IMG/VR virus record: IMGVR_UViG_3300045988_149737 | Length of the DNA: 64,000 nucleotides | From: a virus | Lineage: Duplodnaviria; Heunggongvirae; Uroviricota; Caudoviricetes | Strand: one strand, 5' to 3' | Shown: positions 29,435 to 46,030 of the stretch, piece by piece | Numbering within the stretch: the first letter of the stretch is position 1 | Layout of the letters: each line of letters starts with the position of its first letter | Notes under the pieces: model-generated | Told to the model about the DNA's origin: nothing | The model's input: the letters and a program-made list of their open reading frames with translations, nothing else | Database searches by the model: none | Translations under genes and position numbers: made by a program

Positions 29435-30087
29435 TGACCACCGTTAACAATAAGAAATGCTACCCAAGCGAGAAATATCTTAATGAGCTGATCACCAACA
29501 TTGAGTTTGCTGCAAGGGCACCAGTTGAAGTCGTGAGAGCGATTGCAGCAGAGCTACAGAAGCACCGTAAGGCCTATGCCAATACAGCCGCATCTAAGGA
29601 TGGTTGGATAAGCTGTAGTGAGCGAATGCCTGTAATTGGCGAGCTAAATTGGAGAACTAGTTTTCCTTTACTGGTTACGTGTGAGATCGGCGTTATACCT
29701 GCTTATTACGGCTTTGTGAGCGTTAATGGTGATAGGCATTATGGCTTTATGGAGAGTCTTAAATACGGAGACGATAACGGCAACCATCCTCAAACTAATG
29801 AATATGGTCTGATTAGCAATGTCACACACTGGATGCCACTACCAGAACGCCGCAGGAGTCGAACAGTGAATAATGCAGAGTTATTTCAGAAAATATCGGC
29901 TCTCGCGACTGAATGCCACGCTATAGCATCTGAGCTTGATGTTGGCGATGAACGAACCGAGATGTTCGAAATATACAGTGTGCTGCGCAATCTCTGTCGG
30001 CGTGGCTACGCCACTCAAGTAGGGCGAATGACTAACCCACTACTCTCATCCTGTGATGAGGATGATTCGGATGAGGATGACGAATGA
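29434..30087 (+). CDS. hypothetical protein (217 aa) with acidic C-terminal tail
   Basis: ORF; C-terminus DEDDSDEDDE. Confidence 0.5.
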   Translation: MTTVNNKKCYPSEKYLNELITNIEFAARAPVEVVRAIAAELQKHRKAYANTAASKDGWISCSERMPVIGELNWRTSFPLLVTCEIGVIPAYYGFVSVNGDRHYGFMESLKYGDDNGNHPQTNEYGLISNVTHWMPLPERRRSRTVNNAELFQKISALATECHAIASELDVGDERTEMFEIYSVLRNLCRRGYATQVGRMTNPLLSSCDEDDSDEDDE

Positions 30088-30749
30088 TGCATAAATCAGT
30101 AGCCGGTGAGTTTCAGAAGGAAGTCGATAATACTACCGTTCTATTGGACGATATTTTAAGCATTCTCGCGCTTCTTGAGGCTGGCGATTGGTCAGAACAT
30201 TGCACTAAAACAGAGCTAGGCGGTCGGCTTGAAAGAGAGATTACACGACTTATTGGTGATGCGCAGGAAGCTACAGTCACTAGTTATGAGTTAATCGCTG
30301 AAGCCTGGCGTTTGATGGATGGACAAGATCCTAAAACCAGCGATTGGCATAGCAAGGCTTCGAAGTATTTAAATTCCGATAGGGTAGAAAAAGTTGATGA
30401 TGTGAAACCGAAGCCAGTAGACCACGGTTTCCGCGATAACTGCGAATGCTCTAGTTGCCAGACCACGGCCCGTATTTGTTCTGAATTGACAGATAAGTCC
30501 AGCCTAATCTACGAAGTTAATGTAGGCGGTAATACATGGGTCGAATGCACAAGAGCTGCATACGTAAGAGCAAAAGACAAGGGTGAATTAACCAGAGTTG
30601 TTACCAATCACCCAAATAATGAGCTTAAAGATCACCAGATTCGAGAACTGGTGAACGAGTTGAGAGATATTGCGGTTCAGTACCACGGAACGCAGCAATT
30701 GCGGGAGAAGATTGCCAGAGCAGTGAACAACTCAGTCCGTAAAAAATAA
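30084..30749 (+). CDS. hypothetical protein (221 aa)
   Basis: ORF, coupled; hairpin aggccccatgctcttgatggggcct after the stop. Confidence 0.5.
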   Translation: MMHKSVAGEFQKEVDNTTVLLDDILSILALLEAGDWSEHCTKTELGGRLEREITRLIGDAQEATVTSYELIAEAWRLMDGQDPKTSDWHSKASKYLNSDRVEKVDDVKPKPVDHGFRDNCECSSCQTTARICSELTDKSSLIYEVNVGGNTWVECTRAAYVRAKDKGELTRVVTNHPNNELKDHQIRELVNELRDIAVQYHGTQQLREKIARAVNNSVRKK

Positions 30750-31516
30750 GCAATAGTACGATAAAGAGGCCCCATGCTCTTGATGGGGCCTGTAGCAACT
30801 AGCGTTATGGACGCTGGTTTACGTACTCAATGATCGCTTTGATAATCGCGAACATCGGCGGCACGATTTTGAACAGTAAGTTAACCATAACAGGCCTCAC
30901 TTAGTTTTATCGCGCCTAGCTGCAAATACCTTTGGGCTTGCCTTTGCAGTTGCAATATCTGTAGTCGCCAGATACTTACGGCACGATTTCGAGTTAAGGT
31001 AAGGTTTTAGAGTCACCAAAAACCTGGACTTAAATCTTCTTTGAGAACAACGATGTTTAGTAAATGGTCATTATTACCTGGTATGACCACTCAACGCTTC
31101 TTGATGAATCCAGTACATTCGGTTAATCTTAATTCAGTCGCCAGATACTTATGGCTCAGGAACAGAGACGCAAACTCTGTTTCCTTTTAAAAAGCCCAGC
31201 CTAGTCAACTGGGCTTTTTAACGTCTGTTTTTTAACCCAACACACCCTCAATACTGCAACATCAGTGTCTTGCAACCTAAGATAGTGTCTGTAGGTTCTT
31301 CATGCAAGTGCATAACTCAGTGGATAACTCATGAAGGAAAAAGTAGCTTCCGCGCAATTTAGACCAGACAAGGTCTTCGCAAAAGTCAACGGAAAGAGAA
31401 AAATTTGTTAAAAATAACGTTTGTTGGAATTGTATATATTTATGCCTTTCAATAGTTAGCATCTTATTAACATCTTTTTTAAGAGATAGAGTTCAAAAAT
31501 ATATAGCTTCAACATA

Positions 31517-31536
31517 TACTGTATGTATATACAGTG
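31517..31536. promoter_or_regulatory. LexA (SOS) box
   Basis: tactgtatgtatatacagtg matches CTGT-N8-ACAG, 17 nt upstream of the umuD'-like ATG. Confidence 0.7.
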
Positions 31537-31552
31537 TTAAGAGGCGAGTATT

Positions 31553-31942
31553 ATGGGCTTCCCTTCTCCTGCGGCGGATTATGCTGAGAGCCGTATTTCT
31601 CTTGATCAGCAGATAATTAGACATCCTTCAGCGACCTACTTCATGAGGGCAGCTGATAGTCATCATCGTGAGGGAATATTACAGGGTGCATTGCTGGTGG
31701 TCGATTCCTCACTTACCCCGGTTGATGGTTCTCTGCTTGTATGCGCTCTGGATGGGGAATATCGCGTAAAAAGATACCGGAAGTATCCACGTCAGCATCT
31801 GGAGGATTTAAGAACCGGTAAGAAGGAAGCATTGCCAAAGGATGACGATGGATGCACGGGCAGCAATGCCGTGTTTGGTGTGATCACTCACATTATCAAC
31901 GACGCAAGAAGTGGCGAGTTTGATGATTGTCCCGTGATGTAG
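31553..31942 (+). CDS. umuD: UmuD'-like S24 peptidase-family protein lacking the N-terminal pro-segment
   Basis: Begins MGFPSPAADY, matching the UmuD region immediately after its Cys24-Gly25 autocleavage site; conserved Ser (AADSH) and Lys (RVKRYRK) at catalytic positions; in-frame stop 15 nt upstream excludes a longer N-terminus. Confidence 0.7.
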   Translation: MGFPSPAADYAESRISLDQQIIRHPSATYFMRAADSHHREGILQGALLVVDSSLTPVDGSLLVCALDGEYRVKRYRKYPRQHLEDLRTGKKEALPKDDDGCTGSNAVFGVITHIINDARSGEFDDCPVM

Positions 31943-31951
31943 GAGAACTGA

Positions 31952-31979
31952 TTAGGCGGTGCATTGCACCGCCTTTTTA
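31952..31979. terminator. Bidirectional terminator shared by umuD'-like and apbC
   Basis: aggcggtgcattgcaccgcct hairpin followed by ttttt. Confidence 0.55.
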
Positions 31980-33080
31980 TCACACTGCGCGGAATGCGAT
32001 TTCGCCAGGTATTACTTCACCTTGCCAATACATTTGGGCAGCAACGCGATCTGCGAGGTCACGATAAATAGCCGTAAATTCGCTATCTGGACGACTAATA
32101 ACGGTTGGTGTTCCGTTATCCAGATCTTCACGAAGTGAGATATGAAGTGGCATTTGGCCTAACAACAGCGTGTTGTATTTCTCGGCCAGTTTCTGTGCGC
32201 CACCAGTGCCAAAAATTGGCTCGTGATGACCGCAGTTACTGCAAATATGCACACTCATGTTTTCGACGATACCCAGTACCGGCACTTCGACTTTTTCGAA
32301 CATCACAATGCCTTTCTTCGCATCGATCAGCGCGATGTCTTGCGGCGTAGTTACCACAACCGCACCAGTTACAGGAATGTTCTGCGCCAGCGTCAACTGA
32401 ATATCACCAGTGCCCGGCGGCATATCGAGAACGAGATAGTCCAGATCAGGCCACAGTGTTTCTTGCAACATTTGCATCAACGCCTTGCTCGCCATAGGGC
32501 CACGCCACACCATCGCGTTGTCGTCAGTGACCAGATAACCAATTGAATTGGTTGCCAGGCCATGAGACATAATAGGTGCCATGTGAGTACCGTCTGGTGA
32601 GGTTGGACGTTGGTTTTCCGCGCCCAGCATGGTTGGAATTGATGGCCCGTAGATATCGGCATCAAGAATGCCAACTTTCGCACCTTCAGCGGCTAACGCC
32701 AGCGCAAGGTTTACCGCCGTGGAAGATTTACCTACCCCACCCTTGCCTGAGCTGACGGCGATAATGTTCTTAACGCCATTAATGCCTGGTTGGTTTTTAA
32801 CGCGCTTCAGCGTGGCAATGTTGTGAGACAGCTTCCAGTCGATAGCCTTTGCACCAGTGATACGGAGCAGATCACCACTACATTGCTCTTTCAGGTCTTC
32901 AAAAGGCTTATTCCACACGAAAGGCATGATTAGTTCGACATGCAGTGTGTCATCCATCAACGCAACATGGTGTAACGCTTTAAGCGTAGTCAGGTTGTGT
33001 TTCAGGGTTGGGTGCTGAAAATTAGCCAGCGTACCGGCTACCATTGCTCTCAGGGCATCCGGCGATTTGGACTCGCTCAT
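31980..33080 (-). CDS. apbC: Fe-S cluster carrier ATPase ApbC/Mrp
   Basis: Full-length match by eye to enterobacterial ApbC/Mrp (deviant Walker A SGKGGVGKS, CxxC motif ICSNCGH). Confidence 0.9.
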   Translation of the reverse strand: MSESKSPDALRAMVAGTLANFQHPTLKHNLTTLKALHHVALMDDTLHVELIMPFVWNKPFEDLKEQCSGDLLRITGAKAIDWKLSHNIATLKRVKNQPGINGVKNIIAVSSGKGGVGKSSTAVNLALALAAEGAKVGILDADIYGPSIPTMLGAENQRPTSPDGTHMAPIMSHGLATNSIGYLVTDDNAMVWRGPMASKALMQMLQETLWPDLDYLVLDMPPGTGDIQLTLAQNIPVTGAVVVTTPQDIALIDAKKGIVMFEKVEVPVLGIVENMSVHICSNCGHHEPIFGTGGAQKLAEKYNTLLLGQMPLHISLREDLDNGTPTVISRPDSEFTAIYRDLADRVAAQMYWQGEVIPGEIAFRAV

Positions 33081-33237
33081 CCCGTCTCCTTTATTTTAAT
33101 TTGCGCAATTGTCGCCTTGTAGTGTACTCCAGCTACGACATTTAATCATTTATGAGAAATGCTGTTATCACATGGCAGACATAAGGCCATTTTGTTACTA
33201 TCAAGCCCCTTTTCACTACAAAGAAGTAATGCCTACT

Positions 33238-35271
33238 ATGACCCAAGTCGCGAAGAAAATTCTGGTGACGTGCGCGCTGCCGTACGCTAACGGCTCAATC
33301 CACCTCGGCCATATGCTGGAGCACATCCAGGCTGATGTCTGGGTTCGTTACCAGCGAATGCGCGGCCACGAGGTTAATTTCATCTGTGCCGACGATGCCC
33401 ACGGTACGCCGATCATGCTGAAAGCACAGCAGCTTGGTATCACACCGGAGCAGATGATTGGCGAAATGAGTCAGGAACACCAGACTGATTTCGCAGGCTT
33501 TAACATCAGCTATGACAACTATCACTCGACGCACAGCGAAGAGAACCGTCAGTTGTCTGAGCTTATCTATACTCGCCTGAAAGAGAACGGTTTTATTAAA
33601 AACCGCACTATCTCTCAGTTGTACGACCCGGAAAAAGGCATGTTCCTGCCGGATCGTTTTGTAAAAGGCACCTGCCCGAAATGTAAAGCGCCAGATCAAT
33701 ACGGCGATAACTGTGAAGTCTGCGGCGCAACATATAGCCCGACTGAATTGATCGAGCCGAAATCGGTGGTTTCTGGCGCTACCCCGGTAATGCGTGATTC
33801 CGAACACTTCTTCTTTGATCTGCCTTCTTTCAGCGAAATGCTGCAGGCATGGACCCGCAGCGGCGCGTTGCAGGAGCAGGTGGCGAACAAAATGCAGGAA
33901 TGGTTTGAATCCGGCCTGCAACAGTGGGATATCTCCCGCGATGCGCCTTACTTCGGTTTTGAAATTCCGAACGCGCCGGGCAAATATTTCTACGTCTGGC
34001 TGGACGCGCCGATTGGCTACATGGGTTCCTTCAAGAATCTGTGCGACAAGCGCGGCGATACCACCAGCTTCGATGAATACTGGAAGAAAGACTCCACCGC
34101 CGAGCTGTACCACTTCATCGGTAAAGATATTGTTTACTTCCACAGCCTGTTCTGGCCTGCCATGCTGGAAGGCAGCAACTTCCGCAAGCCGACCAACCTG
34201 TTTGTTCATGGCTATGTGACGGTGAACGGCGCGAAGATGTCCAAGTCTCGCGGCACGTTCATTAAAGCCAGCACCTGGCTGAATCATTTTGACGCTGATA
34301 GCTTGCGCTACTACTACACCGCGAAACTCTCTTCGCGCATCGATGATATCGACCTGAACCTGGAAGATTTCGTTCAGCGCGTGAATGCCGATATCGTCAA
34401 CAAAGTGGTTAACCTGGCCTCCCGTAATGCAGGCTTTATCAACAAGCGTTTTGACGGCGTGCTGGCAAGCGAACTGGCTGACCCTGAACTGTACAAAACC
34501 TTTACCGATGCCGCTGAAGTGATTGGCGAAGCATGGGAAAGCCGCGAATTTGGTAAAGCTATCCGTGAAATCATGGCATTGGCTGACCTGGCTAACCGCT
34601 ATGTCGATGAACAGGCTCCGTGGGTGGTGGCGAAGCAGGAAGGTCGCGATGCCGATCTGCAAGCGATTTGCTCTATGGGCATTAACCTGTTCCGCGTGCT
34701 GATGACGTACCTGAAACCGGTACTGCCGAAACTGACTGAACGTGCGGAAGCGTTCCTGAATACGGAACTGACCTGGGATGGTATCCAGCAACCGCTGCTG
34801 GCACATAAAGTGAATCCGTTCAAAGCACTGTATAACCGCATCGACATGAAGCAGGTTGAAGCACTGGTGGAAGCATCCAAAGAAGAAGTGAAAGCCACCG
34901 CCGCGCCAGTTACTGGCCCGCTGGCTGATGATCCGATTCAGGAAACCATCACCTTTGACGACTTCGCCAAAGTTGACCTGCGTGTGGCACTGATTGAAAA
35001 CGCGGAGTTTGTTGAAGGCTCTGACAAACTGCTGCGTCTGACACTGGATCTCGGTGGTGAAAAGCGTAATGTCTTCTCCGGCATCCGTTCTGCTTATCCA
35101 GACCCACAGGCACTGATTGGTCGTCACACCATTATGGTGGCTAACCTGGCTCCGCGTAAAATGCGCTTCGGTATCTCCGAAGGCATGGTGATGGCTGCTG
35201 GCCCTGGCGGAAAAGACATCTTCCTGTTAAGCCCGGATGCCGGTGCTAAACCAGGCCACCAAGTTAAGTAA
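33238..35271 (+). CDS. metG: Methionine--tRNA ligase
   Basis: 677 aa from [26 protein letters not shown] (HIGH motif), KMSKS motif present, zinc-binding CPKC...CEVC; start moved from upstream ATG to canonical MTQ. Confidence 0.9.
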
Positions 35272-35290
35272 CTAAACAATCATTCTTCAC

Positions 35291-35318
35291 AATGCCCGGC
35301 AACACGCTGGGCATTTTC
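35291..35318 (+). terminator. Rho-independent terminator after metG
   Basis: atgcccggcaacacgctgggcat followed by tttcat. Confidence 0.5.
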
Positions 35319-35424
35319 ATATAGACACAATCCCTCCTGATTTACACAATCCCTAAAACAATTTGTTTTCTACCTTTTGTTGATTGAGATAATAAGCCAC
35401 ATAAGAAAACAAATTGTTTAGGAG

Positions 35425-35673
35425 ATGAAGATGTTTGGAACAGCAAAAGAAATCATCGAGAAACTGAAAAACTATCCAGAAGACGAACCCTTACTCATGG
35501 TTATGTGGCACAAAGAAGATATTGCTGAAGTAAGGACAGATCTCACTGATGAACAATGCGTACAGGTGATGCAAAAAATCAGACAATGCCATAACGCTGA
35601 TGTCGGCGTTAATTGGGAGGTTATATCCACTACGGCGAATGAGTTGTTTCCAAACGGGGAGAGGGGATGTTAA
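35425..35673 (+). CDS. hypothetical small early protein (82 aa)
   Basis: Preceded by two AAACAA-N-TTGTTT elements and a ggag RBS. Confidence 0.5.
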   Translation: MKMFGTAKEIIEKLKNYPEDEPLLMVMWHKEDIAEVRTDLTDEQCVQVMQKIRQCHNADVGVNWEVISTTANELFPNGERGC

Positions 35674-35966
35674 ATATTACTCAATCCTACCAGGTGGCAT
35701 TGATCAGTTCATCTCATACATCAGAGGAAGATGCTCGCCGATTCATGATCGCAAGCAATGAGCTGGATTGGGTTTCACAAATTGAGTACGGTTGCATAGT
35801 TCACGCCGGGTTACAGGACGATGACTGGAAAGATAACTTGCGTCGATATGGTATATCCGAGGGCGCGATTTCGAACATTCAGAAGGTACTTGATGTAGGC
35901 TTTGACTCTGTACATTTTGATTGTGGCGCACCGGTCGTTGAAGGGCTTGAGTGCTGGAACTGGTAA
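35667..35966 (+). CDS. hypothetical protein (99 aa)
   Basis: Overlapping coupled ORF. Confidence 0.45.
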   Translation: MLNITQSYQVALISSSHTSEEDARRFMIASNELDWVSQIEYGCIVHAGLQDDDWKDNLRRYGISEGAISNIQKVLDVGFDSVHFDCGAPVVEGLECWNW

Positions 35967-36104
35967 ATCTGAAAACATATTCAAACCGTTGATAATGGCG
36001 GTCACAATTTGATTCTTTTCTATAAGAATCCGTTGATCGCCACTACCCCCATTCCATACCCGCAATCACATCCTTAAATTTCAATAAGTTATAGTTGTTT
36101 ATAC

Positions 36105-36985
36105 AATCAAGAAAACAACTGAATAACAGATCAACGAAACATCAACGCTTTCACCCGATTTGGTCTAAAAAATTGACGTTTTCACACATCACTGCTTATA
36201 CCCGTAATCCCACGCAGCAGATAGCGCCACAGCGTCCAAATTTCACCACAGACGACCCAACACACTACCAACAAAAACACACGCTCAAAATCGCTCTCGT
36301 TGCGTTACACAACCATATAAACAACTTATTTTCAGGCATAACAAAACAACTAAATAACACATGTGCCATTACCAAAAACAACCAACCTCTTTATGGCAGG
36401 CTACCGAAAAGACCCACCTCTTCTTCCCAGGCTACCGGACAACCAACCTAACTTTCACAGGCAATCCGAAAACATTCATACGCGCGATACCCACGACACG
36501 CCATTCCCCAAACAGCGAAGAAACACCAGAATCACTGAAACCCCAACGAAGCCTGTAACCGCAAGGATTCTCTCAATCCCAAAAGACACGAAACAGAACA
36601 ATCACGGGAAACGCCATTACCCAATACACGAATAACTACAAAAGCCTTTCACACACTCCAGACAAACAACTCAAACACAATAACGAAAGGAATCGCCCAC
36701 CTGCCATTACTCCATACACGGAGAAGAACAATCACCAAAACGACGAGAACACCCCATAGAAGAACCACTGCAAAACGAACGAAACCACATACACCGACAG
36801 AGAGAACAACACACCCAATTCACCAACAGAAATAGTCGCCGTATAGAACATTCTGGAAGGAGTGAGCATTAACGCCTATAGAGAGGTTGAAACAGATAAA
36901 ACACGAAGAAAACACAACATGTATAGCGAAGAAGCCAGGTATGTATAAGTGGGGAGGGAAGGAGGGGTGTCGCCTCCTTTTTCGT
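36105..36985 (+). ncRNA. Candidate long A+C-rich, G-poor non-coding RNA
   Basis: About 780 nt where the + strand is roughly 75-80 percent A+C (by eye); promoter-like motif at about 36070-36115 upstream and a terminator hairpin aaggaggggtgtcgcctcc plus ttttt at about 36950-36985; no minus-strand ORFs. Confidence 0.25.
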
Positions 36986-37039
36986 ATTTATTCAACTCCT
37001 GATTTTATCCCCCGTAACACCCCTACGGTCAGCCTTCGG

Positions 37040-37190
37040 TCCATACAGGGAAAAGGCTGCATCCCGCTACAGAAACGGCTGGGTTGCCTTCGGGGAACGG
37101 CTGGAGGTTTTCAGGGAAACGGTCGAGTTGCCTGTGTGGATTTCGGGAAAAGGCTCGATGCCGGTTCAGGAACGGCGGCGTACCGGTATA
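37040..37190. repeat. Array of about 6 direct repeats, consensus CAGGGAAACGGCT, at about 22-bp spacing
   Basis: cagggaaaaggctg, cagaaacggctg, cggggaacggctg, cagggaaacggtcg, cgggaaaaggctcg, caggaacggcgg. Confidence 0.5.
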
Positions 37191-37559
37191 GCGTGAGGGA
37201 GAGTTGCGGCTACCCACCTGTAATGTGCGGGAAGAAGAGAGGCGCTAACGTGCAGGCGAACTTACTTACCGCTGGATTCCCTCTGAATGCCCAACTACAG
37301 CGTAATTGTGCCAGACAGCCAACGGGTCACAATCGATTTCAGTAGGTTTTCGGGGAGAGGATTATTCTGCCCACCAGCCACTTTCGGCCACCAAATCAGA
37401 ATAATGTAAAAAGTGTACTCGGTACTGAACCTGAAAACTCACTGCCAAAACAACATTCACCGGAATAAAATCCTTTTTCGCCTTTGCGTTATTGCGATAA
37501 TAACGCCAACAAGAAAACAACATATTTAGACGTTGTAGAAACGAAGTGAGGATGAAGAG

Positions 37560-37778
37560 ATGATTAAGATGCCTGTGACGGTTGAGGTGTGGGGCGTGGA
37601 TTCCCTGGCTGAGTGTCTGGATGCAGTGGGGCCGGAGTTGTACCGCAAGTTGTGGTCGTTCGTCCCGGCAGAAGGGGAATCGCCCAAAGGGAAGGATATC
37701 TGGCACCTGCTGAGTGAAGATGAAAAGCGGGAGCTGGTGGGCGCGGTACACAGCGAGTTCCCGGACGACGAAGATTAA
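37560..37778 (+). CDS. hypothetical small early protein (72 aa)
   Basis: gagg RBS; followed by terminator aggccaccagcacggtggct plus tttt. Confidence 0.5.
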   Translation: MIKMPVTVEVWGVDSLAECLDAVGPELYRKLWSFVPAEGESPKGKDIWHLLSEDEKRELVGAVHSEFPDDED

Positions 37779-37917
37779 GAGTGAGGCCACCAGCACGGTG
37801 GCTTTTGTCGCTATTAACCTCCGGGGCAGCGCAGCACCGTAACGATATACTTTGTGGCCGTTTTCTTACTGGTATTGTTTACGCAATTCAGAAAACATGT
37901 TGTTTAAGGATTGCTTT

Positions 37918-38247
37918 ATGTTTGCAAATATCGACATCAACCAAATCAAGAAATTAACTCAAAAAGAGTTTGATCAGTTTTATGAGTTAGAAGGTTGGTC
38001 TTCCACTCTGATCAATTCGCGGTGGGTGCTTGAGCTGATGACTCGTGATGACGCACCTGCTTTGATGATTTGCGACATGGGTGAAGATGCTGACTTTATG
38101 GATATGAGCGAATTTTGTGTGGACACATACAACCGCAGCCAGAAGTACTACTTCACATGCGATAGCGAAAATGACGTGATTTCTAAGGTCTATCTTCACC
38201 TCGTCCAGCATTGGGACGTTCAGGAGTTTCTTGAGGTATTCGCGTAA
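37918..38247 (+). CDS. hypothetical small early protein (109 aa)
   Basis: Start moved downstream of the promoter motif; terminator aagccagcattgctggctt follows. Confidence 0.5.
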   Translation: MFANIDINQIKKLTQKEFDQFYELEGWSSTLINSRWVLELMTRDDAPALMICDMGEDADFMDMSEFCVDTYNRSQKYYFTCDSENDVISKVYLHLVQHWDVQEFLEVFA

Positions 38248-38375
38248 TCCCAACCAAAGCCAGCATTGCTGGCTTAACTTAATCTGTAGCCGCAGGGAAG
38301 AACCTGCATATCGCTCATGCGCCTGATCAATATGCTTTGTAGCCGTTTTCTTACTGGTATTATTTACGCCATTGA

Positions 38376-38391
38376 GAAAACAAGTTGTTTA
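38376..38391. promoter_or_regulatory. AAACAA-N-TTGTTT element (approximate)
   Basis: gagaaaacaagttgtttacgg about 12 nt upstream of the ATG at 38402. Confidence 0.45.
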
Positions 38392-38401
38392 CGGAGTTGT
38401 G

Positions 38402-38713
38402 ATGAAAAGTTCATTGGTTCTTGGTCTGGACAAAGACCAGAAGAGAAAAGAGAAGCCTGCACTGGTTGCTCAACTAACTTTGCTGGACATCGTTGCCAAT
38501 GGAACATCTATTCGTCTGTTCCGTGAAACAGCGGTGTCTTTCGATAAAAACACCTTTACTCGTTATGTAATGAATGTTCGCCGCCAGCGTGGAAAAGGCT
38601 GGATGGCGTTTCAAAGAATGTGGCCGGAACATCAGCTCGAACTGGCCTTGATGGAAGTTAACCGCGTGGCCCAGCAAGAGATTCAGAGAGCATCAGTGAT
38701 GGCAATAGCCTGA
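38402..38713 (+). CDS. hypothetical small early protein (103 aa)
   Basis: ATG downstream of motif. Confidence 0.5.
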   Translation: MKSSLVLGLDKDQKRKEKPALVAQLTLLDIVANGTSIRLFRETAVSFDKNTFTRYVMNVRRQRGKGWMAFQRMWPEHQLELALMEVNRVAQQEIQRASVMAIA

Positions 38714-38747
38714 TAATGTGCAAGTGGTAATTAGTCGACAGTACGAC

Positions 38748-38778
38748 AGCCCCGCCATCCTTACGGGGCTTTTTTGTT
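38748..38778 (+). terminator. Rho-independent terminator
   Basis: agccccgccatccttacggggct followed by tttttgtttt. Confidence 0.6.
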
Positions 38779-38839
38779 TTGTAAGTACATACTTACGATC
38801 ATAGAATATAAAAATAACCAATACACTACGGAGAGTGAA

Positions 38840-39235
38840 ATGACCGTTAAACGCGAAAAACTGACAGTTGATGTTTACTATGCCTCTGAAACCGCCGAAG
38901 GTAAGAATGTGGCAAAAATCACCGTTGTTACGTACAACACCGAAACTGGTGCCGAAGTACAGGCCAGTACGATCGTGCGTAAAGGTGATGCCTCCGGCGG
39001 CGAGTACGCGACTCAATACCAGTCCATTCTCGATGCAACTGACCCGCTGCTGCTGAAAATCGAGAACTACTTCCGCCAGGTTGATGAAGAGGTGTTTGAA
39101 ACCATGATGAATATGGTTAATTCCGTATTCGCCTCCAGCCTGAACACCAGCACCACCTGGATTGGCCAGTACGGTCTGCGTATTACCTCCGGCATTCCTG
39201 CTGATACCTTAATCCCTGAAAGCGTATTCGCTTAA
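38840..39235 (+). CDS. hypothetical protein (131 aa)
   Basis: Start at ATG with ggagagtg RBS, downstream of the terminator; terminator aatggcgcgtaaaccgcgccatttt follows. Confidence 0.5.
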   Translation: MTVKREKLTVDVYYASETAEGKNVAKITVVTYNTETGAEVQASTIVRKGDASGGEYATQYQSILDATDPLLLKIENYFRQVDEEVFETMMNMVNSVFASSLNTSTTWIGQYGLRITSGIPADTLIPESVFA

Positions 39236-39352
39236 TCCTCTTTAAATGGCGCGTAAACCGCGCCATTTTCTTATGCCCGATAATAATTTGTTTTCTGCCT
39301 TATCTGATTTGTGAAAATGATTTCACTGAAGCAACTTAATAAGGAAACCATC

Positions 39353-39727
39353 ATGGGACTTGATATCTACATCGAGACGCAGCCAAAAAACGATCTGAAT
39401 AATGAGGCATCCAGAAAGCGGGTTGCTCACTTCCGTAAGTTCAATGCGCTCGTTGGGTGGATGGAGCGCAACGTAGGTGAAGTCGAAAATTGTGAGCTTT
39501 TAGAATTAACGATGAATGACATTTGTTTTCTGAAGGCTCATTTGATGCACATAAACGAAAGCAATTGCGAAGAGTACTTGCCTACTCGGGAAGGTTTTTT
39601 CTTCGGCAGTCAGGAGTACGATGAAGGTTACTGGCATGATGTGGGGGAGTTGAAAGAGCTTGTGGAAGATCTGATTAAGAACCACGACTTTCACAATAAC
39701 AGACTGACCTTCTGCGCCTGGTGGTAA
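39353..39727 (+). CDS. hypothetical protein (124 aa)
   Basis: aaggaaacc RBS; preceded by TTTTCTGCC...GTGAAAAT promoter-like motif. Confidence 0.5.
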   Translation: MGLDIYIETQPKNDLNNEASRKRVAHFRKFNALVGWMERNVGEVENCELLELTMNDICFLKAHLMHINESNCEEYLPTREGFFFGSQEYDEGYWHDVGELKELVEDLIKNHDFHNNRLTFCAWW

Positions 39728-39729
39728 AT

Positions 39730-39873
39730 ATGGGCGATTTCAAGAAACGCCTGAAGGAAAGAGCCGAGATGGCCAGAAAGCAAAACGCCTCTTCTGTCAT
39801 CAGATACGCAAGGCAGTTTAGTCGCAACAACAAATCAGTTGAGGAAAAGATCCTTAGCGTAATCGAGCGATAA
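39730..39873 (+). CDS. hypothetical small basic protein (47 aa), below the ORF-track cutoff
   Basis: ATG 3 nt after the previous stop; MGDFKKRLKERAEMARKQ...; terminator agaccaccagcattggtggtct follows. Confidence 0.3.
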   Translation: MGDFKKRLKERAEMARKQNASSVIRYARQFSRNNKSVEEKILSVIER

Positions 39874-40028
39874 TTATTAAGACCACCAGCATTGGTGGTC
39901 TTAAATGACTTTTAATAACCGAAGGTTAATTTTAAACCTGGCTATCAACTTCCAGAACCTTTCTTGTGTATTCAGCCTGAATTAACTTCTTTTCTGCCTT
40001 ATCTACACTGCGATAATTACACCAACAA

Positions 40029-40044
40029 GAAAACAACATGTTTA
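40029..40044. promoter_or_regulatory. AAACAA-N-(A)TGTTT element (approximate)
   Basis: caagaaaacaacatgtttacgc upstream of ORF 40057. Confidence 0.4.
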
Positions 40045-40056
40045 CGCAGTGAGGAT

Positions 40057-40344
40057 ATGCACATGACTGATTTCACCATTACCCCAAAAGCACAAAATGT
40101 ATTCCTTGAATCATGGCTGGACTTGCCGGAAACAGAACAGCAAGAAATGGATCATGTGGAATATGACGAGCAGGTAAGCACGCGATTCTTCCACTTTGAG
40201 GGCTGCGTTTACGATATTGCCGACTTCATGAGAGATGACCGCTTCCCTGGATGGCACGCAAGCTATCCACTTAACGCCTTCGCCATGCTGATGATCCGTG
40301 TGGGTGATTCAGGGGATACCATCGACATCGGTCTGCTCCACTAA
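40057..40344 (+). CDS. hypothetical small early protein (95 aa)
   Basis: gtgaggat RBS; terminator aggccaccagcattggtggcct follows, near-identical to the one at about 39880. Confidence 0.5.
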   Translation: MHMTDFTITPKAQNVFLESWLDLPETEQQEMDHVEYDEQVSTRFFHFEGCVYDIADFMRDDRFPGWHASYPLNAFAMLMIRVGDSGDTIDIGLLH

Positions 40345-40548
40345 AGACTAAGGCCACCAGCATTGGTGGCCTTAAATGACCATCTTGTTTCCCGCAGGCT
40401 AAAAACACCAACCTCTTACCTCCAGGCAACCGACAAACCCACCTGTTCCCGTCCGGCTACCGCAACTTTCCACTTTGACGCCTTATTCGTACAACGATAA
40501 TTAACACCAACAAGAAAACAATTTGTTATTTACGATAAGGAATTAATC

Positions 40549-41031
40549 ATGAATTTTATCGCTACTGTAAACGCACCCGCACATGGCAATATCGCTGTAA
40601 CGTTCTCTGACATTGAAAAACGAGTACTTGGTGCATGGCGCGACAATGAGACGGTAGAACTGTCAGAACAAGAAAAATGCATTATTGCACGCGACATCAT
40701 TGGCAATCGTCGTTACTCGCGGGTATTTGAGAAAGCATATGTGGTAAATTCTGGATTCGGAACGTTCGTCTTCCCGGTACGCTCCGGGCGATTCTGCCAG
40801 TCCAAGCTGATTGAGTTCGCTACGCAGATTTCTGTCTGGATTAAAACTCAATCGTCGTTCAAATTTTCCGACGATGAAGCAGTATCGCAGGGGATGCGGA
40901 TCGCCAACAATGCGATTAAATGCAAAAATATTACGTATACCGCTGGCGTTGACACATGGAAACTGTTTTGCGCTAACTTTATGCTGAATGTATACGCAAG
41001 CAACCGCATCCACATCCTTGATGGCGTGTAA
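40549..41031 (+). CDS. hypothetical protein (160 aa)
   Basis: Preceded by caagaaaacaatttgtt motif. Confidence 0.5.
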   Translation: MNFIATVNAPAHGNIAVTFSDIEKRVLGAWRDNETVELSEQEKCIIARDIIGNRRYSRVFEKAYVVNSGFGTFVFPVRSGRFCQSKLIEFATQISVWIKTQSSFKFSDDEAVSQGMRIANNAIKCKNITYTAGVDTWKLFCANFMLNVYASNRIHILDGV

Positions 41032-41039
41032 CTGAGAAG

Positions 41040-41170
41040 AGGGCCAGAAACGGCCCTTTCTCTATAGCCACCAGCTGCCGCAGGGAAATTTTCAGAAACG
41101 GCGAGGAACGCATTCATGAGCCGACGGGGAACGGCCAGGATTTTTTCGGGAAACGGCTGCATTCGCCTTT
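41040..41170. repeat. Second array of GGGAAACGG-type direct repeats (about 5 units)
   Basis: cagaaacggcc, cagggaaatttt, cagaaacggcg, cggggaacggcc, cgggaaacggctg. Confidence 0.45.
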
Positions 41171-41539
41171 ATATAGAAAAAACATCGGGAAGCTGGTGGA
41201 ATCCAACCAGCGGTTGTCGGACAGGTGAGCGGGGAAAATTATGATGACTTTCGTCGCCTGAGACATCCAGATTTCTTTCGTAGCGTAATCACATATGTGA
41301 TTAAGTGGTGTGATTATGTGAAAAATCACGCGCACATAATACGCGAGCGGATACGGAACAAAACAAAATGCCGATCCGCGCCGACAATTAAACGCGGATC
41401 ATAAAGCAAGAATAAAAGCCAATGATTAACCATACACCATAGCGCAATATAACGCGTTTTAAGCGCGTTAATGTGTTGAGTAATGGGTATGTACTGGTAA
41501 GGATATAAAAGCGCGTCTGTGGCGTTATTTTGGCGCTTA

Positions 41540-41650
41540 TTTTATGTTGTTGGAGTGAGTCAAAGACAATAAAAAAGCGCCATCATTGGCGCGTTATGGT
41601 GGAAGTATTAGAAACGAAAAAAGCGCCCATAGTGGGCGCTAGATTTTATT
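41540..41650. terminator. Cluster of three A-tract/hairpin/T-tract terminators at a convergent transcription boundary
   Basis: agcgcgtctgtggcgtt, agcgccatcattggcgcg, agcgcccatagtgggcgct each flanked by A and T runs; a fourth copy near 41881-41915. Confidence 0.5.
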
Positions 41651-41876
41651 TATGTAAACTGATTTCAAATCCCATTTCTACAAACGCTTTTAACATTAAA
41701 AATATATCAGCGTCATTCACGTCTGCTTTTTTTCGCTCCTGGTCGCTCAATAAGTCAATTTTGCGCGTCGTTTCATCGATAAACTCGACTGCGCGCCCAG
41801 CGTAACCAGCGATCCCAGCGATGCGATTAACAAAATATTCATTGCGCACGTTAACGCCAGAGATAAGAATAAACAT
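41646..41876 (-). CDS. hypothetical protein (76 aa), low-GC
   Basis: Flanked on both sides by near-identical hairpins aaagcgcccatagtgggcgc. Confidence 0.4.
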   Translation of the reverse strand: MFILISGVNVRNEYFVNRIAGIAGYAGRAVEFIDETTRKIDLLSDQERKKADVNDADIFLMLKAFVEMGFEISLHK

Positions 41877-41923
41877 GATTAAGCTCCTTAAAAGCGCCCA
41901 TAGTGGGCGCCAGATTCCATTAA

Positions 41924-42574
41924 TTACGCTTTGAAAGCATCAGCCAGATAGTTATAGAAATCATTTTTAATAAAGCGATATTGCTGCGTACCAGCTTTTG
42001 CGCTTCCCATTCCTTTGACTTTCTCAACAAGTCCAAGACGTTCGCAAAGATTGATAAGCTGGTTGGCTTGAGTGTATCCTGCGTCTAATTTTATTTCGTT
42101 GGCTTTTTTCGCTTCATTCATTAAATCGAAAACAGCGCCATTTGTGAACGTCTCGATCTCGTCGTTAATCATATCGATTAATGCGAATACACGAGATCCG
42201 GACATATCAGCGACGGAATAAACACACTTTCCAGCTTTAATGGATTTAACCAGATAAACCAGTTTTTCCAGAGAGTAACTATTAGCCATTGCATCACGGA
42301 AAAATACTTCTGGCGCTTGTTTGCTTGCTTTGATCGCATAGTAGAAAACAGAGCACAATTTTTCGTCTTCTACAGCGTTTACAACGTTGTTGATGAAGTA
42401 AGCAAGTTTAGTGGTCGCAGCTTGCATATTTGCTTTATCTGCTTTGGTGTGCGTACCATTTTTATAATGTTCGTTATATGTTTGAGTTGCCAGATCTGCT
42501 TTTTCGCGCAGTTCATCGGATACAATGGAAGCAGCTTCAACGATGGATTTTTTAGAAATGATAATGTTAGCCAT
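41924..42574 (-). CDS. hypothetical protein (216 aa), low-GC
   Basis: ORF with AT-rich upstream region. Confidence 0.5.
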   Translation of the reverse strand: MANIIISKKSIVEAASIVSDELREKADLATQTYNEHYKNGTHTKADKANMQAATTKLAYFINNVVNAVEDEKLCSVFYYAIKASKQAPEVFFRDAMANSYSLEKLVYLVKSIKAGKCVYSVADMSGSRVFALIDMINDEIETFTNGAVFDLMNEAKKANEIKLDAGYTQANQLINLCERLGLVEKVKGMGSAKAGTQQYRFIKNDFYNYLADAFKA

Positions 42575-42857
42575 GATAATTTTTCCTTATGTAAATTTAA
42601 AATTTATTGTCGTTAGCGTCTTCGCTTTCGACGAGTTCAATTATCGATATGCGAAAAAAGATTGCAAGTGTTTTTTTAAAATTTTTTGCAGGGATGAAAG
42701 TCCTAGAAATAAAAGCGAGATCGTCGAAGGTGTTCCCTAAATAAATAATCGATTCCGGCTTTAGACCTTATATATATTTAGGTTATTTGATTTATAGATA
42801 TAAAGAAGTGATGTGAAAAATAATAACCGGACTTAGCCGGTTATTAACCTTATAGAT

Positions 42858-43166
42858 TTATTGAACAGACTCTACAGCCTTACGATTGGTGTCAAATAGC
42901 GCATCAACGAACTGTGCCGATGACTCGCTAGATTCGCAATCCAACATTGCCCGTTCTTCATTTGCCACTTTCTTACACAGTTCCACACTCTCACCTATCG
43001 CTTTTCCTGCTTTTACGGCTGCCGAAAATTGATACATGCAAACTGATACATTCTGAGACGTTGAGCACACGTCATTCATCAGCGACTGAATGACAGGCTT
43101 ATAGTCCATTGCATTTGCCGCAACTGAGCAAAGTAAAAATAATGGTGGTAACAATATCGATTTCAT
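42858..43166 (-). CDS. small secreted protein (102 aa) with signal peptide
   Basis: MKSILLPPLFLLCSVAANA-MDYK signal peptide with AxA cleavage site. Confidence 0.45.
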   Translation of the reverse strand: MKSILLPPLFLLCSVAANAMDYKPVIQSLMNDVCSTSQNVSVCMYQFSAAVKAGKAIGESVELCKKVANEERAMLDCESSESSAQFVDALFDTNRKAVESVQ

Positions 43167-43169
43167 AAC

Positions 43170-43772
43170 TCAAAAAGGCAAAATTCGTTCAACCCAATCG
43201 AACAAAACAACTATTTTTCTACCGTTCTCGACACGTAGTGTAACCTGACAAGCATCTGCGCCTGCTGACACCCCCTCAATTTCACGGCCATCCGCCATGT
43301 ACACCCTTATAGATTTGTTTGCTTTGTAGGCTTGGTTGCAAATTGCAAAAAAATCGCGGCGTGATGGCCGATTATCGACATAATCAGGGTGAACTGTTAG
43401 TCGACCTTTGAAATCGTGAGCGATACTGTCAACCACACCTGATTCAATTGTACTAATGCGTTCAAGTGGGAGCCTTATACGATTTTCTTTGTCAAAAGGG
43501 GCTGGGCAAAGGTCAACTTTGTTACGAGATGGCATGAGGCCATAAACGTACATGCAAAACGCCTGGCCATCTTCGAGAGTGACCCTTACAGGAATTTGTT
43601 CTCTGCGCCAGAACATCAGTAGTTTTTCAACGTTAGTGTAATCTCGCGGCCAGAGTTCAGCTTGGATACCGTAGGTAATATCTTTGGTTGTCATGTCATC
43701 ACAGAGTTGTTGGCAGAATGTCGATGTCACCAGAATTGCTGGTGAACACCCTGAACGCTTTTGTGTCTCCAT
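43170..43772 (-). CDS. hypothetical protein (200 aa, start uncertain; an internal Met would give 174 aa ending at 43694)
   Basis: The track start overlaps the upstream lipoprotein gene by about 70 nt. Confidence 0.45.
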   Translation of the reverse strand: METQKRSGCSPAILVTSTFCQQLCDDMTTKDITYGIQAELWPRDYTNVEKLLMFWRREQIPVRVTLEDGQAFCMYVYGLMPSRNKVDLCPAPFDKENRIRLPLERISTIESGVVDSIAHDFKGRLTVHPDYVDNRPSRRDFFAICNQAYKANKSIRVYMADGREIEGVSAGADACQVTLRVENGRKIVVLFDWVERILPF

Positions 43773-44121
43773 TCTTCAGAGTCGTTTCTCGCTCTTGACG
43801 AGCGGGGTTTAGAGCACATAAACCTGCACCTTCAAGAGATGCACCCACAATTAATTCTCCGGCATTTAAATGAAAAGTCGCTTTTTCGCCTGTAGCCAGT
43901 TTTGCGACAGTTTCGCCATTGATGAAAATGGAAGCATCACATCCAGCTCCTACAAAACCTGTGTCTCTCATTACCACCAACGTAGCTGGCGCTGCGCTTT
44001 GATACTTGAACACTTTGGCCTGCGGTGCTGGTTTGGCGTCATGGATTGATATTGGACGTGATTGGCACGCGGTAAGCATCAACACTGGTAACGTTAGTAG
44101 AGGGAGAAGCGAGTGTTTCAT
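43699..44121 (-). CDS. lipoprotein (about 140 aa)
   Basis: Start chosen at MKHSLLPLLTLPVLMLTAC, a typical lipobox (L-T-A-C). Confidence 0.55.
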   Translation of the reverse strand: MKHSLLPLLTLPVLMLTACQSRPISIHDAKPAPQAKVFKYQSAAPATLVVMRDTGFVGAGCDASIFINGETVAKLATGEKATFHLNAGELIVGASLEGAGLCALNPARQERETTLKNGDTKAFRVFTSNSGDIDILPTTL

Positions 44122-44189
44122 GTTAGTTTTAGAACAGAAAGTGAACAGTATGGGAGACTTCATCTTTGTCTCCCTAATTGATAGCGTGA

Positions 44190-44468
44190 TTATTTTAATC
44201 TGCTTAATAGCGTTTCGAGATCTTCCTTTGTCATATTAGAGTTCTCATAGATACGCATGATTTTCTCACGAGTCTTAGCGGAAGCCCCGACAGAAGATAT
44301 AACCTTGTCAAAGTCGGCCATTGTCAATTGTTCCAGAATGGTATTTATGACTTCAGCCTTAGACATTTTGATATTTTTTTCTTTTAGTTTCACTTGAAAC
44401 TTTCCAAGTTTGTCATTGGCCTTATCAGACAATGCTACCTGACAGTAAGTTGTTTTCTTTTCACTCAT
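44190..44468 (-). CDS. hypothetical protein (92 aa), possible ribbon-helix-helix DNA-binding protein
   Basis: Coupled downstream of the helicase; N-terminal beta-strand-like TTYCQVALSDKANDKL. Confidence 0.4.
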   Translation of the reverse strand: MSEKKTTYCQVALSDKANDKLGKFQVKLKEKNIKMSKAEVINTILEQLTMADFDKVISSVGASAKTREKIMRIYENSNMTKEDLETLLSRLK

Positions 44469-44470
44469 AA

Positions 44471-46030
44471 CTAATCTCGTTTCAGAACTCCAAAATCGAA
44501 TGCTCCATCAATAGGCAATACACCTTCTGCAAAGCCAGGTGTGGTGTCGATGATGTGTTTTCGCTCATAAGAGTGAGACAACAGGTATTTGTTGCTAATG
44601 TCAATGAAATCAGTGATAAAACACACGTTTGCCTGATTTTTTTTTGCTCGTAAGCCACGACCGACACGCTGTCTCATTTCAACTTCTGCTTTCCCACCAC
44701 CAGCAAGAATGACCGCACCAACGCTTGGCACATCAACACCGACATCCAGAATAGTCGAGCCTATTAAAACATCTATTTCACCAGACGCTAAACTATTCAG
44801 CTTTGCTTGCCTTGTCGTCTGGTTAGATTCCCCATAGATGAAATCAACTTTAAGACCTGACTCCTTCATCATCTCCATCAGGATTTGCCCGTGGCGTTTA
44901 AGACGAACCAGAGTCATGCAGTTGAGTGAATGTTGCTTATAAAGCAATGCCTCGCGCACTATGGCCTCGTTACGTCCCAAATTATACACGATCCCCAACT
45001 GATAAGCCTTTTGGTAGGCGGTGCTCATACCAACTCTAAAATTGAGGTGTTTGTTGGCAAGTTCGGCCTTGATTCTGGCCTCGTCTGGCTTGTAGGCAAC
45101 TTTATGATAAAGGAAGTACGGCTTTGCCAGAATGCCTCGATCAATCAGGTACTTTTCTGTGACTTTAATTTCAATTCGCCCGGCCACCGCCATCAGGCGC
45201 ATGTTGGCTTCCGTCGAATCCTTCATGAACGGCGTGGCTGTAAGCGCCAGACGATAGTCTGCGTTCACACATAATCTGGCGATGTCATAGAAATTTGAGC
45301 CTGAAGACTCATGCGCCTCTTCCAGAATAAGAAGAGAGACACTTGAAAGGAAGCGTTTCACCAACTCCCGACGTTTGAGGTGGTAGCTTTTCTTATCTGG
45401 TGTTGCATCGCGTGGTGGTTCTTCGAGGAAACTTGCAAGAGTTTGAACTGTAGCGACGTTGATATGTCGTGATACCTGGAACTCACCCGAGCCAATGACT
45501 CCAACCTTTTGGTCTTTTAACCACGGTTCGCCATTTTCGGCGCGGTAGTCGATGGATCTCTGGAAGTTTTCGGCCATTTGAAACATCAGAACAGAGCGGG
45601 TTGTTAAAAATAATGTCATTCGACCGATACGTGCAGCTGCTTTGCAGGCAACGTTAGATTTCCCGCCACCAGTAGCGATCTGCGCAATCATCATTCCCTC
45701 TCGAACCAGTGTTTCCACAGTCTGATCCTGATACGCATAATCAGGATTGTATGGGAATGGGTTAACCGCTGGATTTGGTTTACCAAGCGCCGGGGCTTTG
45801 TCTTTGCGGATATGAACACATTTGATGCCCGCCTTGTTCAAGTTCGCCGCTACAGGCTTGGCAAAGCCAGCAGGGAACGAGTTTTTACTCCAGTTGAACA
45901 TCGTGCTTGTGCCCTTCCAGTCGCCAGTCTCGACTTCGTAGCTCAACATTTGCTGCACCAGTTGCTTTACCTTGTCATCTGCGCCAGAAATAAGCGCATT
46001 TACTGCGTTAGATACAATCCGAACAGTCAT
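44471..46030 (-). CDS. Superfamily 2 DNA helicase (DExH-box)
   Basis: Walker A ATGGGKS, motif II LILEEAHE, later helicase-C-like region. Confidence 0.7.
   Translation of the reverse strand: MTVRIVSNAVNALISGADDKVKQLVQQMLSYEVETGDWKGTSTMFNWSKNSFPAGFAKPVAANLNKAGIKCVHIRKDKAPALGKPNPAVNPFPYNPDYAYQDQTVETLVREGMMIAQIATGGGKSNVACKAAARIGRMTLFLTTRSVLMFQMAENFQRSIDYRAENGEPWLKDQKVGVIGSGEFQVSRHINVATVQTLASFLEEPPRDATPDKKSYHLKRRELVKRFLSSVSLLILEEAHESSGSNFYDIARLCVNADYRLALTATPFMKDSTEANMRLMAVAGRIEIKVTEKYLIDRGILAKPYFLYHKVAYKPDEARIKAELANKHLNFRVGMSTAYQKAYQLGIVYNLGRNEAIVREALLYKQHSLNCMTLVRLKRHGQILMEMMKESGLKVDFIYGESNQTTRQAKLNSLASGEIDVLIGSTILDVGVDVPSVGAVILAGGGKAEVEMRQRVGRGLRAKKNQANVCFITDFIDISNKYLLSHSYERKHIIDTTPGFAEGVLPIDGAFDFGVLKRD

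Follow-up and report, generated by a model that had tools for sequence, protein, structure and literature searches.

A conserved A+C-rich, structure-poor non-coding element at the cargo boundary of SSU5/pHCM2-type phage-plasmids as a candidate Rho-loading zone

Analysis of a 64,000-nucleotide (nt) stretch of DNA from a virus of the Caudoviricetes (IMG/VR record IMGVR_UViG_3300045988_149737; this whole stretch is called the window below) revealed a conserved non-coding tract, rich in A and C and poor in G and T on the + strand, at the boundary between variable cargo genes and the early genes of a phage-plasmid. We tentatively propose that this tract could act in cis as an untranslated zone for the loading of the termination factor Rho and for transcription termination, insulating the early genes and an adjoining repeat array from the variable cargo. 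We consider this reading possible but short of probable, and it is weighed below against functions as DNA, functions as an RNA in trans and the lack of any function.

A preliminary description of this DNA, made from the letters alone, had singled out 36105–36860 as strand-asymmetric, A+C-rich and G-poor, and windowed base composition and skew confirm this. On the + strand, A, C, G and T make up fractions of 0.401, 0.312, 0.131 and 0.156 of this segment, compared with averages of 0.278, 0.219, 0.246 and 0.257 for the window. In 750-nt segments, A+C content peaks at 0.719 at position 36101 (mean 0.497, standard deviation (sd) 0.029, z = 7.5), and the next most extreme segment in the 64 kb reaches just 0.559, which leaves the tract as the sole region of this kind. 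Across 36100–36800, the GC skew runs from -0.42 to -0.49 and the AT skew from +0.30 to +0.60, with the onset of the skew near 36020 and its end near 36860. The ratio of C to G is ∼2.4 over ∼800 nt; of the 78-nt segments within the tract, 99% have a ratio above 1.5 and 78% a ratio above 2. A ratio above 1.3 extends without a break over ∼900 nt from 35966; the longest such run elsewhere in the window is about a fifth as long (160 nt). With just A and C as its letters, a sequence can form neither Watson-Crick nor wobble pairs and yet offers the pyrimidine-C (YC) dinucleotides bound by Rho, a combination that few alphabets allow; in the + strand RNA of the tract a YC dinucleotide occurs about every 7 nt. 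Further, this RNA has a predicted folding energy of -0.124 kcal/mol per nt against a mean of -0.287 (sd 0.032; +5.1 sd), which makes the tract the least structured of 338 segments of 750 nt on both strands, whereas the - strand of the tract is ordinary. A consensus fold over ten lineages reaches only -34.8 kcal/mol across 906 columns. The tract therefore has the sequence properties of a Rho-utilization (rut) region, namely C-rich and G-poor RNA over at least ∼70–80 nt, little structure and no translation, and at the level of sequence the earlier view that such an RNA would be an ideal Rho substrate is supported.

The preliminary description also saw no credible open reading frame (ORF) in the tract, and its relatives agree. 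The + strand ORFs of 118, 90 and 65 amino acids are not conserved: stops are found in all six frames of all eleven homologues (4–15 per frame), insertions and deletions are not multiples of three, and the first and longest local ORF is broken in the Klebsiella, SSU5 and Citrobacter lineages. A protein-coding gene was therefore rejected, no frame being conserved across relatives. The Prokaryotic Genome Annotation Pipeline places no gene at the tract in the RefSeq plasmids.

The element is widespread. It was found in 838 PLSDB plasmids from six or more genera (Klebsiella, Escherichia, Enterobacter, Salmonella, Citrobacter, Cronobacter and others), where it almost never carries a gene annotation, and on contigs of Kluyvera and Buttiauxella. 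Among complete E. coli records, 243 carry the element, 237 the terminase and portal genes and 238 the adjacent early-gene block; because it is found in about as many records as the terminase and portal genes, it is, as judged by these counts, a core element of the family. Syntenic AC-rich tracts in related phages were recovered in the 11 lineages compared, with syntenic downstream genes. Identity between lineages is 65–75%, yet the length is held at 807–869 nt in 10 of the 11 lineages and A+C at 0.64–0.70. Alignment columns that differ between lineages still have an A+C content of 0.59–0.69, and therefore composition itself is maintained; A-to-C and C-to-A exchanges form the largest class of difference, with a transition/transversion ratio of ∼1. 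Conservation is patchy, with near-invariant stretches at 36021–36040, 36101–36200, 36260–36360, 36381–36400, the GCCATTAC motifs, 36681–36840 and 36941–37020.

Several further records were considered in this comparison. Large Klebsiella IncFIB/IncHI1B plasmids (158–453 kb) carry a shortened copy consisting of the upstream hairpin and ∼650 nt of the tract (L007 5870–6625, L008 5870–6620), which ends at an insertion sequence (IS) transposase remnant beside type I restriction-modification or IS genes; as fragments beside IS remnants, these copies were rejected as an independent context. Yersinia pestis pMT1 is uninformative as a natural loss of the tract because its homology to the window starts only at 39990. 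One contig labelled 'MAG: Bacillota bacterium' (JAEWTL010000044.1, L018) contains the whole tract and encodes a gene 99% identical to that at 40549, and is probably a mis-binned enterobacterial phage-plasmid contig.

The region 36000–37300 matches ∼100–120-kb E. coli plasmids at up to 97.9% identity, phage Cyrano (pLF82) at 97.8%, Salmonella phage SSU5 at 66.7% and Klebsiella phage-plasmids at ∼72% over part of the query. Gene order was read from the RefSeq annotation of the near-identical plasmid pEC332_01, in which nucleotide-metabolism genes, HumD, apbC and metG lie upstream of the tract, followed by a gap of ∼1.5 kb free of genes, and small hypothetical genes, a helicase, ParB-like genes, terminase, portal and capsid lie downstream; repA, dnaE and a DnaB-like helicase are found elsewhere on the plasmid. 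Because of these matches and this gene order, the window is assigned to a phage-plasmid of the SSU5/pHCM2 type with a host-like metG as cargo. In the window itself, 31980–35271 holds a host-like apbC (- strand) and a full-length methionyl-tRNA synthetase gene metG (+ strand), directly upstream of the element; apbC is expressed ∼9-fold over background in Cyrano lysogens. Plasmid pEC332_01, the closest RefSeq relative, also has dfrA51, blaCTX-M-55 and an IS91 insertion, and its RNase HI gene (L006 7119–7782, window ∼20738–21418) is annotated as frameshifted.

Homology between lineages begins at ∼35983. The genes upstream of this point vary by lineage (metG/DUF5983, a coiled-coil protein, GIY-YIG, DUF4145, SulP and others), while the element and the genes downstream are syntenic, and relatives of 97% identity differ from the window by one gene present or absent exactly at the ∼35983 boundary. 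On these comparisons, therefore, the element marks the inner edge of a cargo-exchange region. In 8 of the 11 lineages, the upstream neighbor is oriented so as to read into the tract. The first conserved feature, and the left edge of the non-coding element, is a two-tier hairpin (Table 1) that lacks a U-run and is directly followed by C-rich sequence. It is present in 9 of the 11 lineages, the other two having lost the 5′ arm to the cargo junction: in pJN2-26 (L003 ∼3830–3900) and pCY-CTX (L012 ∼1400–1470) unrelated sequence stands in place of this arm. This puts the junction within the hairpin and is a hint of recombination at the palindrome.

Evidence from transcription comes from strand-specific RNA sequencing of E. 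coli LF82, which includes Cyrano (PMC9928086, S1 Table; values reported as log2(fpkm+5), where fpkm is fragments per kilobase per million). The data are gene-level counts from ten lysogen samples under five conditions, and the gene upstream of the tract in Cyrano differs from that in the window. CYRAN_102, which is co-oriented with the tract and ends 111 bp upstream of it, is expressed at 45–587 fpkm. CYRAN_103, which corresponds to the first 357 nt of the tract, gave 0, 0, 1.5, 2.5, 2.2, 2.0, 5.2, 7.4, 14.3 and 2.2 fpkm, and CYRAN_104, which covers the 3′ hairpin and repeat cluster 1, gave ∼1–20 fpkm. The next early gene downstream, CYRAN_105, reached ∼180–220 fpkm in macrophages at 1 h. In these lysogens, then, sense transcription is active on both sides of the 1.3-kb non-coding region but nearly absent within it (CYRAN_103 and CYRAN_104). 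This pattern fits action of Rho in cis (termination or insulation) better than a sponge acting in trans.

What is conserved is composition rather than sequence, and the strand concerned runs in the same direction as all neighboring genes; this points to a role in single-stranded form. We propose the following sequence of events. RNA polymerase leaving the upstream cargo region would make a long, naked RNA consisting almost only of A and C; on this RNA, free of base pairing and of ribosomes and bearing YC dinucleotides, Rho would load and then release the polymerase, short of the phased repeat array and of the repressed early-gene cassettes. Exonucleases may trim the terminated RNA back to the upstream hairpin, and the hairpin and U-run at 36952–36985 may serve as a back-up intrinsic terminator. 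Overall, a Rho-dependent zone acting in cis fits best because the tract is not translated, lies at the cargo boundary behind a hairpin without a U-run, coincides with the collapse of sense RNA and has near-zero steady-state RNA. The literature searched on the SSU5/pHCM2 origin, non-coding RNAs and Rho decoys contained nothing relevant and does not mention the element.

Several findings weigh against this proposal. A Rho-dependent terminator needs ∼100 nt, and not a conserved length of ∼850 nt, nor does it need conserved 28-nt and 31-nt repeats or invariant blocks. In 3 of the 11 lineages, the upstream neighbor is directed away from the tract. Because the early genes downstream have terminators and promoters of their own, it is not obvious why they should need insulating twice. 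In Cyrano, the drop in RNA occurs already before the annotated start of CYRAN_103, and therefore the upstream hairpin, a protein roadblock or fast decay of the unstructured RNA could cause it. Finally, the strong strand asymmetry would suit a function as single-stranded DNA equally well.

Table 1. Features of the element and its surroundings (window coordinates; a full stop marks features without an assigned strand)
Feature	Position	Strand	Remarks
Two-tier inverted repeat/hairpin; outer stem TGGCGGTCA/TTGATCGCCA, inner stem GATTCTT/AAGAATC around TTCTAT	35993–36043	+	-19.1 kcal/mol, z = -4.7
C-rich, G-poor lead-in with weak TTCAAT-N16-TACAAT (36080–36107)	36044–36108	+	motif below promoter-scan threshold
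A+C-rich, G- and T-poor non-coding tract	36109–36860	+	composition, least structure, no conserved ORF, composition and length kept
Most conserved block: AAGAAAACAA..AATAACA, two TCAACG repeats, GATTTGGTCT, TTGACG-N18-TATACC	36109–36205	+	65–85% of columns invariant, six lineages
Second copy of AA(G/C)AAAACAAnTnAATAACA	36340–36359	+	231 nt after the first; spacing of 231–232 nt kept in three lineages
Dispersed 28-nt motif GCCATTAC(C/T)(C/T)CA(A/T)A(C/T)ACGGAGAAGAACA (GCCATTACCCAATACACGGAGAAGAACA), 3–4 copies	36365–36731 (at 36365, 36500, 36613, 36703)	+	
Three tandem 31-nt units (ACCnACCTCTT-N5-CAGGCTACCG-N4)	36376–36467	+	
G-rich/pyrimidine-rich hairpin followed by TTTTT	36952–36985	+	-18.5 kcal/mol on +, -9.7 on -
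Invariant block ATTCAA..TTTTATCCCCCGTAAC	36990–37020	.	from alignments
Repeat cluster 1, six direct repeats (c/t)(a/c)GGGAAA(A/C)GGCTGG	37040–37185	.	spaced 22, 22, 21, 30 and 22 bp
Repeat cluster 2, same GGGAAA(A/C)GGCTGG type	41075–41160	.	conserved in SSU5 and Klebsiella

The preliminary description placed a promoter-like early-gene motif just upstream of the tract and a terminator just downstream, and took the whole for a discrete transcription unit; these claims stand in part. The upstream motif is a degenerate copy of the repeated early promoter/operator module of this phage, but as a promoter it is weak: it matches 8 of 12 consensus positions, its candidate -10 element, TACAAT, is confined to the E. 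coli lineage, with no conserved counterpart in those of SSU5 and Klebsiella, and no sigma-70-like site was detected at the 5′ end of the tract in SSU5 or Klebsiella pJN2-26. Downstream, the hairpin and T5 at 36956–36985 look like an intrinsic terminator in the E. coli lineage, the only one in which it is strong, and the stem shows 2–3 compensatory pairs and several G·U pairs (alignment A3). A GC stem-loop with a U-run also ends the element in Klebsiella pJN2-26, but the SSU5 equivalent lacks the U-run and folds no better than shuffled sequence (z = +0.26). Thus, the tract is bracketed by discrete elements as described, but a sigma-70 promoter that would make it a transcription unit is not conserved across lineages.

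The early promoter/operator module itself precedes at least 10 + strand genes and comprises an extended -10 (TGnGATAAT), AACACCAAC and the palindromic, operator-like AAGAAAACAA-N1-3-TTGTTTA. Its order is the U-run of the previous terminator, the extended -10, AACACCAAC, AAGAAAACAA-N1-3-TTGTTTA, the Shine-Dalgarno sequence and ATG, at + strand sites 362, 12093, 22309, 23038, 27630, 35403, 37511, 38374, 40027 and 40512. With at most one mismatch, AAGAAAACAA occurs 34 times in the window compared with 9.6 expected, and by analogy with the C1 operators in P1 the module looks like a dispersed operator for one regulator.

Within the tract, the AAGAAAACAA..AATAACA of the most conserved block is the leader motif of the early-gene cassettes, shared with the early-gene promoters. 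The 20-nt AAGAAAACAAnTnAATAACA motif is present in two copies 231 nt apart, and the copy at 36340 is preceded by an operator-like palindrome, AAACAAnTTGTTTT, that is intact in SSU5 and degenerate in the window. The internal repeats already noted in the preliminary description, CAGGCTACCG (at 36397 and 36428) and ACCAACCT (twice), are real and belong to the three tandem 31-nt units. A second copy of the 31-nt module is found at 40385–40470, upstream of the promoter of the gene at 40549. The GCCATTAC core of the 28-nt motif occurs three times here against 0.01 expected and five times in SSU5 against 0.02, and five CGTTGA-type repeats lie within 200 bp in this region. These internal repeats may be leftovers of protein-binding modules from phage early cassettes, or modules that still work. 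Motifs for Hfq ((ARN)n), CsrA (GGA/ANGGA) and MazF (ACA) are not enriched beyond composition in three lineages (GGA in the tract: 7 compared with 6.7 expected), and a decoy built on any of these motifs was rejected for this reason. An ops/RfaH element, a lambda-type boxA and an IHF site were likewise set aside, as comparison by eye with the consensus sequences gave partial matches only.

A strong alternative, which we consider somewhat less likely than the cis-acting zone, is that the element functions as DNA: the tract, the palindrome, the CGTTGA/TCAACG repeats and the phased GGGAAAMGG repeats might together form a lytic replication origin or a large protein-binding platform, in which the A+C strand would be kept free of structure as single-stranded DNA, for instance to load a helicase or primosome or to serve as the strand displaced in an R-loop. 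The preliminary description had offered an origin or packaging structure as an alternative, and the direct repeats downstream of the tract lend it some support. In cluster 1, six direct repeats follow one another at 21–22 bp; in Klebsiella the spacings are 40–42, 21, 21 and 22 bp, and on comparison with the window the helical phase is therefore kept across indels, the 30- and 40–42-bp variants included, as in an iteron-type origin. Cluster 2, 4 kb away, is also conserved and follows the terminator hairpin of the last + strand early gene, so that the two clusters, each directly after a + strand hairpin, flank a small early-gene block. The repeats show no conserved RNA fold (the covariation term for cluster 1 is just -1.71 kcal/mol), and no Rfam match was found at E ≤ 1 in 30000–45000. 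The highly significant palindrome, the invariant TTTTATCCCCCGTAAC block and the clustered CGTTGA-type repeats are consistent with a role as DNA, and a silent 1.3-kb region between active flanks is what would be expected of a protected origin or binding site. Moreover, the phage encodes its own DnaE, DnaB-like helicase, ligase and RNase HI.

However, other hallmarks of an iteron-type origin were not found here. The tract is not AT-rich (A+T 56% compared with 53% for the window) and offers no AT-rich unwinding element; no cognate initiator gene is adjacent, and the proteins neighboring the tract match no known family or function in Pfam and PHROGs; and the only DnaA-box-like site, in the invariant block, matches 7 of 9 positions of the consensus, TTATCCACA. 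The iterons flanking repA (ATCCACTATAGAGAG) are unrelated to the GGGAAAMGG repeats, and a RepA iteron or copy-control locus was rejected on this ground. The cumulative GC skew of the whole 113.8-kb plasmid has no turning point at the tract, although it is uninformative on the origin because the skew follows gene orientation. Lastly, the 3′ hairpin folds much better as + strand RNA, which speaks against a DNA-level element.

Two other observations concern the sequence around these repeats. Chi (GCTGGTGG) occurs 19 times in the window compared with 1.3 expected by shuffling, with seven sites in the 3.8 kb adjoining the tract (for example 37371, 37787, 39883, 40354 and 41068 on the - strand and 37733 and 41192 on the + strand); two lie inside near-identical terminator hairpins, TTAAG(G/A)CCACCAGCATTGGTGG(C/T)CTTAA, at 39877–39904 and 40348–40375. 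Farther on, 41200–41920 is a non-coding stretch of ∼0.7 kb at the switch from + to - strand genes, with strong, partly bidirectional terminator-like hairpins (41329–41401 and 41513–41640) and a weak, sub-threshold Rfam match (RF02901, 20 bits compared with a gathering score of 97).

We regard it as unlikely that the tract is a trans-acting non-coding RNA, that is, a cassette of ∼0.9 kb transcribed on induction whose unstructured RNA sequesters Rho or another host factor that binds single-stranded RNA, with the 28- and 31-nt motifs as sites. The layout does mimic the gene cassettes of this phage, starting with the AAGAAAACAA leader motif of at least 10 early genes and ending with a + strand hairpin and U5, and both its conserved length and the significant repetition of its motifs point to multiple binding sites. 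In the Cyrano data, sense RNA of CYRAN_103 rises from 0 to 5–14 fpkm in the macrophage samples, in which neighboring early genes are induced. A 2025 review of Rho does not contain the words decoy, sponge or titrate, so the idea is not preempted there. Against this stand the poor promoter, whose -10 is destroyed in the SSU5 and Klebsiella lineages, the non-significant terminator in SSU5 and the lack of enriched Hfq, CsrA and MazF motifs. Moreover, Rho would be expected to terminate an untranslated, rut-rich RNA short of the 3′ hairpin. Even when the next early gene is induced, CYRAN_103 RNA remains 15–40 times below it; the abundant RNA that a Rho-titrating decoy would need, as suggested in the preliminary description, was thus not seen in the ten lysogen samples (0–14 fpkm). 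The more specific proposal, in which a structure-free A+C RNA of ∼0.9 kb made on induction would trap Rho or another single-strand RNA-binding host protein and lift Rho-dependent silencing in lytic growth, as an RNA counterpart of the P4 protein Psu, appears improbable.

A non-functional relic, a string of decayed early-gene cassette parts and degenerate tandem repeats in one orientation whose skew stems from the repeats or from strand-biased mutation, is hard to credit: degenerate copies of the promoter/operator module, the 31-nt module shared with the 40549 promoter region, an overall inter-lineage identity of 65–70%, no higher than that of the more divergent neighboring genes and a ∼200-nt insertion tolerated in the tract of one Salmonella plasmid would fit it, but essentially every family member in six or more genera retains the tract at a conserved length despite pressure on phage genome size, invariant blocks persist, variable columns are A+C-rich too, and the substitution pattern described above is not expected from C-to-T and A-to-G deamination bias alone.

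Clinical E. coli, Klebsiella, Enterobacter and Salmonella commonly harbor phage-plasmids of the SSU5/pHCM2 type, which carry resistance genes, as does the relative used here (blaCTX-M-55 and dfrA51). At the cargo-exchange junction of these phage-plasmids, a core non-coding element of 0.85 kb and a further 0.3 kb of repeats beside it lie unannotated in hundreds of records. Should the element prove to be a Rho-dependent insulator, this would account for the uptake of arbitrary cargo without transcription leaking into the lytic genes, and the element would be, to our knowledge, by far the longest dedicated rut region. Should it instead serve as an origin or as decoy RNA, it would supply a part so far missing from the lytic programme of this family.

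The element was also compared with known systems. Type III toxin-antitoxin antitoxin arrays and phage pseudo-ToxI share its layout of promoter, degenerate repeats and terminator without an ORF, but here the tract is not followed by a toxin gene, its degenerate repeats are scattered and do not form a regular tandem array, and the predicted RNA is unstructured and not a pseudoknot. Like the tract, the CsrB/CsrC and RsmY/Z sponges are non-coding, terminator-bounded and composed of repeated short motifs, and the repeats adjoining the tract do contain GGA; unlike in those sponges, there is no Rfam match (E ≤ 1), GGA is not enriched, the GGA repeats have no conserved stems and follow the spacing of DNA iterons, and expression in lysogens is ∼0–20 fpkm. 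R-loop origins (ColE1 RNA II, T4 oriF/oriG and human cytomegalovirus oriLyt with RNA4.9) likewise have a strongly GC-skewed non-coding region near candidate origin repeats, but their RNA is G-rich, whereas the strand co-oriented with the neighboring genes here gives a C-rich RNA, and no promoter for the G-rich strand was found. Iteron origins (P1 oriR/incA, RepFIB and lambda ori) similarly have 5–6 direct repeats at 21–22 bp beside an asymmetric non-coding region and a second cluster nearby; they differ in having a short AT-rich unwinding element in place of 800 bp of A+C and an adjacent initiator, and the repeats described here differ from the RepA iterons of the same plasmid. Known rut regions span roughly 70–150 nt, and the tract departs from them in being continuous over ∼800–900 nt, conserved in length, depleted of U as well and furnished with conserved internal repeats. 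However, like the Rho-dependent terminators of lambda tR1 and of the long untranslated leaders of rho, mgtA/corA and chiP, it would give an untranslated, C-rich, G-poor and unstructured RNA 3′ of a translated gene. The stable hairpin upstream of the tract is the type of structure at which the trimmed 3′ ends of Rho-terminated RNAs usually lie, and in Cyrano the RNA signal falls off at the element, a pattern that decay or a roadblock would also give.

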